A DNA stretch of 10,933 nt from a virus (taxonomy: Duplodnaviria; Heunggongvirae; Uroviricota; Caudoviricetes), in the IMG/VR virus record IMGVR_UViG_2634166457_000009; one strand, written 5' to 3'. Of this stretch, positions 6,491 to 8,932 are shown piece after piece (within the stretch, counting starts at the first letter, position 1; each line of letters opens with the position of its first letter). The notes under the pieces are model-generated. The model ran no database searches. It saw only the letters and a list, made by a program, of their open reading frames with translations, and had not been told where the DNA came from. The position numbers and the translations under genes were made by a program.

Positions 6491-8932
6491 TTAAAAATCA
6501 GCCTGACTCGGGATCAGTTTTTGCCAGATAGCTGAAACGTATTTTGCCTGGTAACGAGCGTCATCAAGTGCATTATGGCGCTCACCTTCGAATGGGATAG
6601 CAGTTCTGGCATCGAAGTCTATGGCTTTCCCCAGCTCAACGATTGTGCGTACATCGCGATCGTTGCAGTAGCGCCACGGGCAGGGGATACCCTGTCGTTC
6701 GTATGAACGGCGTAAAATCACGTTGTCGAAGTTGGCCCCATTACCCCAGACCTGAACAAAAAATTCACCGGAGTTTTCGTCGATAAATTCCCGCAATTGC
6801 AGTAGTGCATCATCTAACGGGATTTCATCGGTCATAATGGCAGACTGCGCTTCACGTGATTGCTTCAGCCACCATTTAATGACGTCACGATCAATGACTC
6901 CGCCAGCAGTATCCAGATCGATGGTCTTGCTAAATTCCGGTCCCATATCTCCGGTTTGTGGATCGAAAAATATTGCGCCTATTGAGATAATCGGGGCATC
7001 GGGATTTTTTCCCATGGTTTCAAGGTCGATCATCAGATGAATCCCCGTTCTGCTGGTGGATGTGAGCTTATGATGACCATTCACCTTAATTAAGGGATCT
7101 GTCGACTCGCCAGTTTTATTATCGCTGGCGTGATGCTGATTGCCGCCAGGGTTCTCCTTGTGTGGATGTTCAGCGCCTTCCATTTCCTCCGTATCATTTT
7201 CCTGAACTTCAACCTGATTCTCTTCATCGAATGTTTCCTGGTATGTTGCGTCGCCCATCACCGCGCCACAATCAGGGCAGTTGCCGCCACCGCTCTGACC
7301 GCAGACGGTGCAGACTTTTTCCGGTTCCTGTTGCGCTACTGGTTCGGATTGTTTCGTTTCTGGCTCGTTTTGTAACGCATTTGGGCTGTTTTGTTCCGCT
7401 TTTTGGTCGTTCCGTTCCGATTCATGCTGGTTCTGGTTCACAGAATCGCGAGTCTGGATCCCCTTGACCCATTTCGGATCATTAGGGTCGCTAATCCCCT
7501 CAACAAATTCACCACGCGATACAGCAAGTAACTTATCGGCGTCAGGCTGGCTGATATTGGCTGCCTGCATAATTTTGTTTACTTCGTCAGCGGTGACTTT
7601 TACTTGGTTAGCGGAACTCACCTGCGACTGAGCATCCAGCGACTGCGCGTTCTGGCAATGTTCAGTTGTATCCGGTTCCATTGTTTCAGTTGTTGCCTGT
7701 TCACCTGCCATTGCGTCAGATGGTTGTGGTTTTTCTTCTTCTGTTTCACGCTCAGTAACCACCTCGCGGTTAATTTCTTCCAGGATATCTTTTTCCGGCG
7801 TATGCCGGGCAGCTGTGAGAGTTTCCTTGCTGGGGTTCTCGTGATCTGTTTCCGTCAAATAGGCGTTGATATACCCCTGAAGGCGTCCCGGGTAGTGATA
7901 AAATTCAGGGTGTGCGCTTCGGATAAGTGCAAAAATAGCGGCGCGGGAATAGTCCAGAATACCCGGGGTTGCACGAAGTGCTGCGGACCATTCTTTGAAC
8001 GGACTTTCTTTTTTCAGGACGACTTTTTTTGCGCGACGATAAACGCTGCCCGGAATTTCATAAATATTAAAATCCATCGGAAGTGTGGCTGCTGCAATCT
8101 CCACATCCAGTGTGTCGAGGGTGTGTACTAAATTCGGATTGCGATCGGTTTTGTTCCCACCGCCAGCATTAGCACCGGAAGCCGTGCGGGTGATGCGTGA
8201 AACACGATTTCCTTTCATCCACTCTTTTGTCAGCAGACCCCGATCGGTGTAGTCAGCGCCCAGGTATGCTTCGAAAAAAGCAGTCATCAGTCCCAGGTCT
8301 GAATTACCAGGATTAGGGAAAACTTTGTCCGTGTCACGAACCAGTTTGTGGAGATCGCGAATTTCCAGTGGTTCGAGTTGCGCAGCTTTATTTGAGATGG
8401 CCAGCGCGGTAACGGCGGGAAGTTTTTCATCCTGTGCGTTATGTAATGCGCGCAGTTCGCCCCGCGAAACGTGTGTGATCGGTTTTTCGCTGCCGTGCTG
8501 TGCCAGCCATCGAACAGGCAGAATCTGACCTGAAACCGGCAGGAGCATGTTCTCCTCAATCTCAGTCATGTCTTCGCCGTTGACGTTGGTATTGTCAGTG
8601 CTGGCTGGTTTGTCCTGAACAGAGGGCGAGGGTGCGATAAGTACCATTGTGATACCATCTTCCCCGCCTTTTTCGTATCGGTTGCAGAATTCGGTATCAA
8701 ACACGCCTTCCGGAGGAAGGTCATTCACAACGGGTAAATGGACGCGAACAGGTTTTTTAAAATCCTCTTCGTCAAATCCGGCATCGTCCATTGCGACAAC
8801 ACCGCGTGATATTGCAACCGATAATTTTTTTGCTGTGCGCCAGTAAAAACCGCCTTTAATCCCAAGACGTTTTCTGACTTTGTCATTTTTGGCTTCGTAA
8901 TATAGTGCAATTTCTTCTTTATCAGCGCTCAT
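6491..8932 (-). CDS. Large prophage exonuclease, 813 aa: RecE-like (exodeoxyribonuclease VIII-type) N-terminal and central region, C4 zinc-ribbon motif, acidic Q/E-rich linker, C-terminal DnaQ-like DEDDh 3'-5' exonuclease domain
   Basis: C-terminal motifs [10 protein letters not shown] (Exo I), [11 protein letters not shown] (Exo II), [15 protein letters not shown] (Exo III, DEDDh). [16 protein letters not shown] zinc ribbon. Segments such as [19 protein letters not shown] and [25 protein letters not shown] resemble Rac RecE as I recall it (not verified). ATG at 8932 with GAGG 9 nt upstream. Confidence 0.85.
   Translation of the reverse strand: [813 protein letters not shown]

Follow-up and report, generated by a model that had tools for sequence, protein, structure and literature searches.

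A RecE-type N-terminal scaffold joined to a predicted DexA-like 3'-5' exonuclease in the early-left operon of a lambdoid prophage

A complete gene for an 813-residue protein, in which the ~615 N-terminal residues of RecE are joined to an exonuclease of the DexA/Rv2179c type exactly where the nuclease of RecE starts, is present in a stretch of 10,933 nucleotides of caudoviral DNA (IMG/VR record IMGVR_UViG_2634166457_000009), called the window below. The prophage is of the Qin/DicB lambdoid type, integrated at tRNA-Ser(CGA), and in the early-left position of its recombination module this is the sole nuclease gene. The ATG is preceded, 7 nt upstream, by the ribosome-binding site GAGG. RefSeq labels the reading frame 'exonuclease' or '3'-5' exoribonuclease domain-containing protein', and an entry that is 100% identical to the protein has been deposited as "exonuclease". 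The gene region has no tandem repeats, and no Rfam family was found within the gene. The gene and its parts are as follows.

6491 to 8932, minus strand: exonuclease gene, complete, 813 aa, in which the RecE N-terminal scaffold is fused to a DEDDh exonuclease
7754 to 8932, minus strand: folded N-terminal region, aa 1-393, divided into an alpha/beta subdomain (aa 1-100) and two helical ones (aa 120-245, aa 260-390)
7088 to 8761, minus strand: segment homologous to Rac RecE, aa 58-615, 56% identical to RecE 50-591
7055 to 7753, minus strand: acidic Q/E-rich linker, aa 394-626, predicted from pLDDT and composition to be disordered
7442 to 7537, minus strand: conserved island inside the linker, aa 466-497, from alignments with Rac RecE and the YdfE-type variant
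7268 to 7312, minus strand: zinc ribbon CxxC-x7-CxxC, aa 541-555, also in Rac RecE
6524 to 7039, minus strand: Rv2179c-like/DexA-like DEDDh 3'-5' exonuclease domain, aa 632-803 (Pfam PF16473)
7016 to 7027, minus strand: DEDDh motif Exo I, DLET, aa 636
6725 to 6742, minus strand: DEDDh motif Exo II, NGANFD, aa 731
6551 to 6577, minus strand: DEDDh motif Exo III, HNALDDARY, aa 786

The likeness of the first ~600 residues to RecE had been put forward in a preliminary description of this DNA, and it is borne out by alignment. BLASTP against Rac RecE of E. coli K-12 gives 315 identities in 564 positions (56%), pairing aa 58-615 with RecE 50-591, and the similarity ends at RecE residue 591. The PD-(D/E)XK domain of Rac RecE (PF12684) occupies aa 615-850, the C-terminal nuclease part being also given as residues ~600-866. 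In Pfam, PF06630 (Exonuc_VIII) matches the N-terminal part with E=6.7e-27. The NCBIfam equivalog for RecE, exoVIII NF007259, scores 927.7, below its cut-off of 1269, and is matched only from profile position 1 to 603 of 877. The E-values of the domain and homology matches are far outside chance.

The folded N-terminal region contains Exonuc_VIII (aa 56-189) and a part that newer Pfam releases call YdfE_C. The fold of this scaffold is confidently predicted, yet no solved structure matched the model. The linker that follows has 20.2% D+E, 9.9% Q and a pI of 4.4, and in the AlphaFold2 model pLDDT falls below 50 at aa 394-448, 486-537 and 561-626. The island at aa 466-497 is near-identical in Rac RecE and in a sister variant of the YdfE type (below) and gives a weak Pfam match to DUF4072 (E=0.19); it is a candidate partner-binding motif. 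A zinc ribbon had been described in this linker, and its presence and place hold, but the spacing between the two cysteine pairs is seven residues rather than the nine first given. Nor is the ribbon peculiar to the fusion, because canonical RecE has one too: its counterpart in the BLASTP alignment with Rac RecE is CNACGQTGGDNCPDC, and the motif, an optional element of the linker, is inherited from the RecE scaffold. It occurs in 8 of the 82 family representatives of at least 400 aa, with C-termini that are PD-(D/E)XK, DEDDh or neither.

The diversity of the family was taken from representatives clustered at 50% identity, which were used in place of a word-indexed search whose output was saturated with close E. 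coli copies (93% identity or more). Among the representatives of at least 400 aa, the C-terminus is DEDDh in ~14, PD-(D/E)XK in ~22 and neither in ~40. In the Shigella phage 75/02 Stx a nuclease-less copy of the scaffold lies directly upstream of gam-recT-exo. Judged from these sequences, the N-terminal scaffold of RecE appears to be independent of the type of nuclease, being found with PD-(D/E)XK, with DEDDh or with none.

The C-terminal domain is predicted to be a DEDDh 3'-5' exonuclease and not a PD-(D/E)XK nuclease, as both profile matches and the structural model support. The three DEDDh motifs noticed at first reading all fall inside the match to PF16473 (Rv2179c-like), which has E=3.3e-66 and 222.8 bits (cut-off 27) and spans profile positions 2-177 of 177. 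PF12684 is absent from the 813-residue protein in Pfam, versus E=4e-28 in Rac RecE, in accord with the early reading of this C-terminus as DEDDh. The AlphaFold2 model has an RNase H-like DEDD fold with pLDDT of ~85-95 across aa 630-806. A Foldseek search with this domain finds DexA of phage T4 first (E=5e-7), followed by RNase T and REXO2/Orn, each with probability 1.00; only DEDDh folds were returned and PD-(D/E)XK was not found. By sequence (phmmer), DexA (8kel) is the sole match in the PDB. The counterparts of its residues D7, E9, D119, H186 and D191 are all invariant in the alignment.

The polarity of the enzyme and its substrate, DNA or RNA, we infer at the level of the family. The protein could be an RNA-directed 3'-5' exoribonuclease, serving lytic RNA processing or turnover, or acting as an anti-defence factor on host RNAs or oligonucleotides with a 3'-OH. 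The Pfam family is named after an exoribonuclease, RNase T and the oligoribonucleases are the next structural neighbours after DexA, and RNA from the operon undergoes heavy processing (dicF). Genes for host takeover and anti-defence, gam, ral and kil among them, are moreover commonly found in lambdoid early-left operons. This reading is nevertheless rather improbable: DexA and its E. coli homologue EcD, the nearest characterised relatives in sequence and structure, act on DNA, the scaffold is common to the DNA-recombination enzyme RecE, and neither an RNA target nor a known anti-defence family is indicated.

The main rival explanation is that the protein is a prophage-encoded anti-phage defence nuclease whose DEDDh domain degrades the nucleic acid of superinfecting phages, with the RecE-type N-terminus as an auxiliary domain. 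This explanation has two versions. In that called HREX, EcD degrades the 5hmC-modified DNA of T-even phages; borne on a plasmid, it reportedly breaks down the DNA of T4 and confers protection from this phage (PMC12153337). In that called TONDO, ISG20-like exonucleases trim the 3' ends of single-stranded RNA phage genomes, and DEDDh exonucleases from prophages and plasmids, whose auxiliary domains vary, are reported to give defence against MS2 and Qbeta (bioRxiv PMC13344964). The closest solved structure is DexA, the equivalent of D169, a reported 5hmC-contact residue, is conserved, and other prophages carry stand-alone homologues (~190 aa, 58-60% identity), upstream of their integration genes and at least one gene from int. 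However, at the position of W152, which activity on T4 genomic DNA reportedly requires, the present protein has Cys and the sister variant Tyr, and the equivalent of the tetramerisation residue D90 stays Asp, whereas it is Ala in EcD, which was compared by its published residues. Since PADLOC gives a weak and generic DEDDh match alone (E=1e-4), no known defence system is indicated. On present evidence the defence reading is unlikely.

The setting of the gene is given by its neighbours.

10443 to 10494, minus strand: DicF small RNA (Rfam, 76.7 bits), which marks the DicA-repressed dicBF early-left operon
9210 to 9398, minus strand: dicB, upstream operon partner
9010 to 9267 (maximal open reading frame), minus strand: ydfD-like DUF1482 gene, upstream operon partner
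6445 to 6480, minus strand: hairpin in the spacer between the exonuclease gene and xis, with a 14-bp stem and no U-run; minimum free energy -20.8 kcal/mol, z=-4.2
6229 to 6432, minus strand: excisionase-like gene xis (DUF4224), immediately downstream of the exonuclease gene
5204 to 6229, minus strand: tyrosine integrase, where the prophage end adjoins tRNA-Ser(CGA)
5062 to 5151: tRNA-Ser(CGA), abutted by the prophage end

From dicF to int the window holds dicF, an Ash/Rha reading frame, dicB, the ydfD-like gene, the exonuclease gene, xis and int, only the first four lying upstream of the exonuclease gene. A related prophage (L001) and phage Tritos have the same gene content. The published dicBF transcript is ydfABC-dicF-dicB-ydfDE and is repressed by DicA (bioRxiv 10.1101/2023.04.14.536235). 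In a simple promoter scan of the minus strand, the ydfD-exonuclease spacer showed neither promoter-like nor terminator-like sites. The placement argues against the defence reading, because the gene is inside an early-left operon under repressor control, no promoter of its own was detected, and it does not look like a moron expressed in the lysogen.

Between the stop of the exonuclease gene (6491) and the ATG of xis (6432) there are 58 nt, and since this hairpin-bearing spacer alone separates the two genes there is no recT or bet downstream. At the position of the hairpin, two related loci (L005 and L006) and phage Tritos have a different sequence in which the palindrome is kept (GCCGGTTG...CAACCGGC). 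The first account had stated that no annealase gene lies between the exonuclease gene and xis; this stands for recT, bet and other annealase genes, and it extends to nine further related loci. In all ten loci, some of them diverged (32-44% identity) and some from isolated phages, recT is not adjacent, and the related prophage stretches inspected carry no annealase annotation. The RecE genes of the PD-(D/E)XK type, by contrast, are followed by recT.

These observations leave little room for an equivalent of RecE (exonuclease VIII) that serves single-strand annealing of the RecET type with an annealase encoded elsewhere. The extensive identity, the frequent legacy label 'exodeoxyribonuclease VIII' and a genomic position the same as that of recE would speak for it. 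Yet the PD-(D/E)XK domain is lacking, the equivalog score is below the cut-off, the polarity of a DEDDh enzyme would destroy 3' tails instead of creating them, and no annealase is annotated in the related prophage stretches inspected, so that such a function is highly improbable. Identity with canonical RecE was rejected, the nuclease domain and recT both being missing.

DnaQ-like nucleases do occur in the Rec modules of lambdoid phages, according to the main text of a 2025 survey (Zheng et al., Genome Res 2025, PMC12315714). The same text defines a 'Tritos' class in which a nuclease is present without SAP, SSB or anti-RecBCD and Chi is abundant. The 'nuclease' listed there for Tritos is probably the exonuclease gene, because no other annotated nuclease gene is present in the early-left stretch of Tritos examined. 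The main text of the survey has neither a fusion to the RecE scaffold nor a mechanism for the class. Two Chi sites, in the same orientation, are present in the window, which holds only ~5.7 kb of the prophage. In a close relative of the prophage 18 Chi sites were counted where 1.4 are expected, with 15 on one strand, and another relative has 8 versus 0.6 expected. The figures for Chi enrichment come from relatives.

The role that we tentatively consider the most likely is trimming of 3' ends during the lytic growth of a phage rich in Chi and dependent on the RecBCD of its host. The exonuclease gene would be co-transcribed with dicF, dicB and ydfD from the DicA-repressed promoter, and the protein would for that reason appear on induction, in lytic growth; the operon position and the simple promoter scan suggest that it is expressed only then. 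The DEDDh domain would strip nucleotides off free 3'-OH ends, and the RecE-type N-terminal scaffold might serve as a nuclease-independent module for targeting or partner binding. Such a targeting role is conjecture, since the scaffold resembles no recognised fold and has no known partner. Reliance on the host RecBCD-Chi-RecA pathway is proposed because phages of this kind are rich in Chi and have neither an annealase nor a RecBCD inhibitor. On replication or recombination intermediates the enzyme may trim 3' tails or flaps, or blunt the ends; it would not make the 3' tails that canonical RecE/RecT requires. A pro-recombination role is not obvious, because 3'-5' single-stranded DNA exonucleases in general inhibit recombination, as stated in the main text of the survey (PMC12315714).

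The preliminary description implied that the architecture is rare. This is not the case. Copies that span 80% of the gene or more are present in 1,249 of 5,426 complete E. coli genomes, and the gene is among the commonest E. coli prophage genes. Current RefSeq and Pfam annotate the architecture correctly, and its class is noted in the 2025 comparative study (PMC12315714). As a sequence the fusion is thus ordinary, having been catalogued in databases. In the literature on Rv2179c, ydfE and full-length RecE no functional or experimental study of the fusion was found.

Pseudogenised copies are known, namely ydfE of K-12, which is cut by IS2, a truncated copy in O157 and a frameshifted one in PPompW, and the gene could be regarded as a decayed, non-functional remnant of recE left by a recombination accident. 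The K-12 ydfE pseudogene is the IS2-truncated remnant of the YdfE-type sister variant and corresponds to the first 256 aa of that 823-residue protein. Against decay of the present gene are the intact reading frame in the same 1,249 genomes, the intact catalytic residues and its carriage by isolated viable phages, and we regard decay as the least probable of the readings considered. Compared with a copy of 87.8% DNA identity, dN/dS is 0.21 overall and 0.13-0.14 in the N-terminal, middle and exonuclease domains (0.14 in the last), all three folded domains thus being under purifying selection. In the linker the value is 0.35, which points to relaxed constraint. The pseudogene reading was rejected because purifying selection contradicts it.

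To our knowledge no function has been assigned to the N-terminal part of RecE since RecE was characterised. This large part of the protein boosts linear-linear recombineering. The natural domain-swap series on the RecE scaffold, in which the nuclease is 5'-3', 3'-5' or absent, offers an experimental route into its role, and also a route into the handling of DNA ends by lambdoid phages that have neither an annealase nor a RecBCD inhibitor. The older annotations 'exodeoxyribonuclease VIII' mislead on both polarity and recombineering potential. More speculatively, and with rather low probability, the N-terminal region of RecE may be an autonomous, nuclease-agnostic module that docks on a specific DNA-metabolism partner of host or phage, and that evolution has plugged into PD-(D/E)XK 5'-3' or DEDDh 3'-5' nucleases or kept separate beside gam-recT-exo. 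The DEDDh version would then represent a distinct, annealase-independent management of DNA ends by Chi-rich lambdoid phages, working with or against host RecBCD, or doubling as an exclusion nuclease.

Among known systems, the Tritos class as set out in the main text of PMC12315714 has an early-left operon with a nuclease and without an annealase, an SSB or a RecBCD inhibitor, and the operon in the window is alike. The resemblance to TONDO is a general one, that of a prophage-encoded DEDDh domain with a variable auxiliary domain, and was judged from the published description (PMC13344964). Rv2179c of Mycobacterium tuberculosis, the founder of PF16473, shares the Pfam family and the DEDDh chemistry with the 813-residue protein, but it is without a phage context and without the RecE scaffold. 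We take Rv2179c to be a stand-alone cellular exoribonuclease.

T4 DexA (exonuclease A; 8KEL/8KEN) is the nearest match in the PDB by sequence and structure alike, and has its fold and five catalytic residues in common with the C-terminal domain. The identity is 27% by alignment and ~20-22% by Foldseek. The extra loops of DexA are missing from the C-terminal domain, which in the 813-residue protein is preceded by an extension of 630 residues; DexA and EcD, for their part, seem to have a single domain. DexA participates in the processing of double-strand-break ends in intron homing.

The YdfE-type '3'-5' exonuclease' of 823 aa is found in Qin-like prophages and in phage Tritos. It has ~93% DNA identity with the gene in the window over residues 444-813, a homologous middle domain and identical synteny, dicF-dicB-ydfD-exonuclease-xis-int, a block that Tritos and other viable phages also carry. 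Over the first ~245 aa, however, the YdfE-type protein is unrelated, with YdfE_N in place of Exonuc_VIII, and the prophages integrate elsewhere, at rspB/ynfP.

Rac recE of E. coli K-12 (exodeoxyribonuclease VIII) has the same early-left operon position, upstream of xis-int, in a locus with recT, ralR and rcbA, all of which are missing from the exonuclease locus. The two proteins have Exonuc_VIII, the helical middle domain, the linker motif and the zinc ribbon in common, but Rac RecE ends in a PD-(D/E)XK 5'-3' double-stranded DNA exonuclease (PF12684) where the 813-residue protein has its predicted DEDDh 3'-5' domain.

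The exonuclease gene begins with an ATG that has a GAGG Shine-Dalgarno sequence 7 nt on its 5' side.

6491-8932, minus strand: exonuclease-fusion ORF, a single long ORF of 813 aa

The protein joins a RecE-type N-terminal scaffold to a DEDDh exonuclease domain. Pfam assigns aa 56-189 to PF06630, the 'Enterobacterial exodeoxyribonuclease VIII' N-terminal domain (E=6.7e-27), and aa 632-803 to a full-length PF16473 domain, the Rv2179c-like 3'-5' exonuclease (E=3.3e-66). The three DEDDh motifs that the preliminary description placed at the C terminus were all located inside the PF16473 match (DLET at aa 636, NGANFD at aa 731 and HNALDDARY at aa 786). 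The RecE-like character of the upstream region was borne out by BLASTP against K-12 Rac RecE (L002:5696-8296): ORF residues 58-615 are 56% identical to RecE residues 50-591, and there is no similarity past RecE 591. The C terminus of Rac RecE is a PD-(D/E)XK domain (PF12684, aa 615-850). Because the alignment ends at 591 and PF12684 begins at 615, the two proteins part exactly at the nuclease-domain border. Consistently, only positions 1-603 of the 877 in the NCBI exoVIII equivalog profile are matched, and the score of 927.7 is below the cut-off of 1269.

A Foldseek search of the full model against the Protein Data Bank returned DEDDh enzymes only, with T4 DexA at the top (E=5e-7), followed by RNase T and REXO2/Orn. 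T4 DexA is also the only relative in that database found by sequence search, so the C terminus is clearly not of the PD-(D/E)XK type. The DEDDh chemistry is intact, as five of the five DexA catalytic residues are kept in the alignment. The AlphaFold2 model, calculated from an alignment of 43 sequences, has pLDDT values above 90 for residues 1-100, 120-245 and 260-390, and of about 85-95 for the exonuclease domain.

Residues 394-626 form a linker that is disordered in the prediction. With 20% D+E, 10% Q and a pI of 4.4, it is indeed the acidic, Q/E-rich segment proposed around the zinc ribbon. The ribbon itself is present at aa 541-555, with the spacing CxxC-x7-CxxC rather than x9. Its implied specificity to the fusion did not stand, since Rac RecE carries the same ribbon (CNACGQTGGDNCPDC). 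It occurs in 8 of 82 family representatives (those of at least 400 aa), whose C termini are PD-(D/E)XK, DEDDh or neither, and is an optional feature of the common linker, not a novelty of the DEDDh fusion. Apart from the cysteine spacing and this specificity, the preliminary description was correct in both observation and structural interpretation. The linker is fast-evolving and disordered outside an island of about 32 residues (aa 466-497, nt 7442-7537), which is almost invariant among the fusion protein, Rac RecE and the YdfE-type variant. The island is a candidate short linear motif that would bind a partner protein.

A search with the N-terminal 616 aa among 1.84 billion cluster representatives matched only 271 clusters, so the scaffold family is narrow and mainly enterobacterial. 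Members of at least 400 aa were typed by phmmer with the two alternative C termini as probes, giving about 14 DEDDh, about 22 RecE PD-(D/E)XK and about 40 with neither; Pfam found no further domain in ten of the last group. The three types are set apart by genomic context. DEDDh fusions have xis and/or int directly 3' of them, which is true also of the diverged proteins P0161 and P0132 (32-44% identity) and of Citrobacter phage Chris1. The PD-(D/E)XK types have recT as the next gene, as seen in Rac and Salmonella phage SPN3UB, and after the nuclease-less types comes an overlapping Sipho_Gp157 gene or gam-recT-exo (Shigella phage 75/02 Stx).

Nuclease-less RecE-N-type proteins of 682-814 aa exist as separate genes (75/02 Stx, L019, 3501-7310; also L015, L016 and L017), suggesting that the scaffold works on its own. 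In 75/02 Stx the gene lies directly 5' of gam-recT-exo; elsewhere it is translationally coupled to the Sipho_Gp157 gene. Zheng et al. (PMC12315714) report DnaQ-like nucleases among lambdoid Rec modules and mention 'RecE-2' proteins that have no nuclease domain. Two unrelated temperate phages, PhiR47_1 (L009, 3995-4567) and Salmonella phage F1055 (L010, 4007-4564), encode stand-alone homologs of about 190 aa that share 58-60% identity with the exonuclease domain; in each, the gene closes the early-left operon or lies close to its end. One small gene separates the homolog from int in F1055, and in PhiR47_1 a small gene and PanTA toxin-antitoxin genes follow at the end of the record. It is not the domain alone that recurs, but the early-left position with it. 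The domain-swap series on the RecE scaffold is the most useful angle of this family, as it opens the function of the RecE N terminus to experiment.

The DEDDh fusion is not a new feature. Copies are plentiful, current pipelines annotate them correctly, and the literature has already taken note of the fusion, although no experimental study of it is apparent. A 100% identical protein has been deposited under the name 'exonuclease [Escherichia coli]' (P0001). A Megablast hit of some kind was obtained in 4,743 of the 5,426 complete E. coli genomes, and in 1,249 the copy covers at least 80% of the gene, under the labels 'exonuclease' or '3'-5' exoribonuclease domain-containing protein'. The dicB-ydfD-exonuclease-xis-int block was found at serU (L001, L003), at ompW (L004) and at the Qin site next to rspB (L005, L006). 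Among isolated phages, vB_EcoS-640R1, -813R8 and -689R5 carry the RecE-N type, and Tritos, mEp460_ev081, Evi and HannyBb the YdfE type. This 823-aa sister variant has its C-terminal 370 aa almost exactly as in the window protein, and its first ~245 aa are unrelated. In more recent Pfam releases the pieces already bear the names YdfE_N and YdfE_C.

The K-12 ydfE pseudogene (L011, MG1655 1650078-1650998) encodes 256 aa that are 100% identical to the N terminus of the intact variant (L005:3641-6112) and ends at an IS2 insertion (IS2E). It corresponds to residues 1-256 of the variant, and K-12 has therefore lost the nuclease part. The window gene is under purifying selection: compared with one copy at 87.8% DNA identity, the N-terminal, middle and exonuclease domains have dN/dS values of 0.14, 0.13 and 0.14, and the linker has 0.35. 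That this gene, too, is a decaying relic is the least likely of all the readings considered.

Features around the exonuclease gene

5062-5151: tRNA-Ser(CGA), neighboring mtfA and tRNA-Asn
5204-6229, minus strand: tyrosine integrase gene, adjoining tRNA-Ser(CGA)
6229-6432, minus strand: excisionase-like gene, 58 nt 3' of the exonuclease gene
6445-6480, minus strand: stable hairpin with a 14-bp stem and no U-run, between exonuclease stop and xis start (-20.8 kcal/mol, z=-4.2)
9409-10260, minus strand: 'Ash + Rha' ORF, 283 aa, its 5' end overlapped by two RNA genes
10021-10108: C4 antisense RNA (Rfam), within the 5' end of the Ash + Rha ORF
10133-10209: isrK Hfq-binding RNA (Rfam), within the same 5' end

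On the 5' side of the exonuclease gene, the same strand carries a ydfD-like DUF1482 gene, dicB, the Ash/Rha ORF and the DicF sRNA; the block forms the left arm of a lambdoid prophage of the Qin/DicB type. The dicBF transcript, ydfABC-dicF-dicB-ydfDE, is repressed by DicA (bioRxiv 10.1101/2023.04.14.536235). The ydfD-exonuclease spacer showed no promoter-like or terminator-like site, and by position the exonuclease gene belongs to the repressor-controlled early-left operon. The C4, isrK and Ash-Rha set, lying between dicF and dicB, looks like an antirepressor module of the P1 immI / Gifsy-1 isrK-anrP type. The annotated 5' end of the Ash + Rha ORF probably extends too far; in L001, the closest relative, no gene is annotated at the matching position.

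The spacer before xis differs in sequence in L005, L006 and Tritos, with a palindrome kept at the same place (GCCGGTTG...CAACCGGC versus GCCGCTAAC...GTTAGCGGC). This retention in the two sequence types compared suggests that the hairpin may be a conserved element for RNA processing or attenuation, or one that binds a protein, before xis-int. The host flank holds mtfA (Peptidase_M90; 4171-5007, minus strand) and a repeat-rich ORF of 1,220 aa (95-3757, minus strand), whose annotated TTG start probably lies too far upstream. The latter presumably resembles YeeJ-type invasin/intimin adhesins. Strain SCU-115, with the same serU/asnT neighborhood, has a yersiniabactin island in its place.

The partner gene is consistently absent. 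The prophage portion of the window contains no recT, bet, erf, gam or abc gene, and xis follows the exonuclease gene after 58 nt, in agreement with the RecT/Bet deficit first noticed. The RecE-type scaffold might make the fusion a true RecE equivalent; with a DEDDh domain and no annealase, this is very unlikely. The Chi sequence (GCTGGTGG) occurs twice in the window, both times in the same orientation, at 6363-6370 (plus strand) inside xis and at 7052-7059 (plus strand) inside the exonuclease gene. The related serU prophages contain 18 against 1.4 expected (L003; 15 on one strand) and 8 against 0.6 expected (L001). These counts fit the published 'no annealase, high Chi' lambdoid class, which in Table 1 of Zheng et al. 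(PMC12315714) combines a nuclease with abundant Chi sites and lacks an annealase, an SSB and a RecBCD inhibitor. Phage Tritos, the prototype of the class, carries exactly the gene block seen here.

The fusion enzyme would be made on induction or in lytic growth, its DEDDh domain taking nucleotides off 3' ends and its RecE-type scaffold serving as a tether. In a Chi-rich phage dependent on host RecBCD-RecA, it might shorten 3' tails or flaps, or make ends blunt; unlike RecE, it would not make recombinogenic 3' tails. Such 3'-end trimming in lytic growth is proposed tentatively, at slightly less than even confidence, because 3'-5' ssDNA exonucleases usually antagonize recombination, the substrate may be DNA or RNA, and defense is a credible alternative.

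That the fusion is a defense nuclease is credible, if distinctly less probable than end trimming. Kang et al. (NAR 2025, PMC12153337), who solved the structure of DexA, report that its E. coli homolog EcD breaks down 5hmC DNA and gives protection from T4. A 2026 preprint (PMC13344964) describes DEDDh exonucleases of prophages and plasmids, termed TONDO, that carry variable auxiliary domains and block ssRNA phages. A separate, RNA-directed role for the fusion is rather improbable, somewhat more so than defense. Of the two residues reported for 5hmC recognition in DexA/EcD, the equivalent of D169 is kept in the fusion, whereas that of W152 is Cys. The D90 equivalent, lost in EcD, is kept in the fusion.
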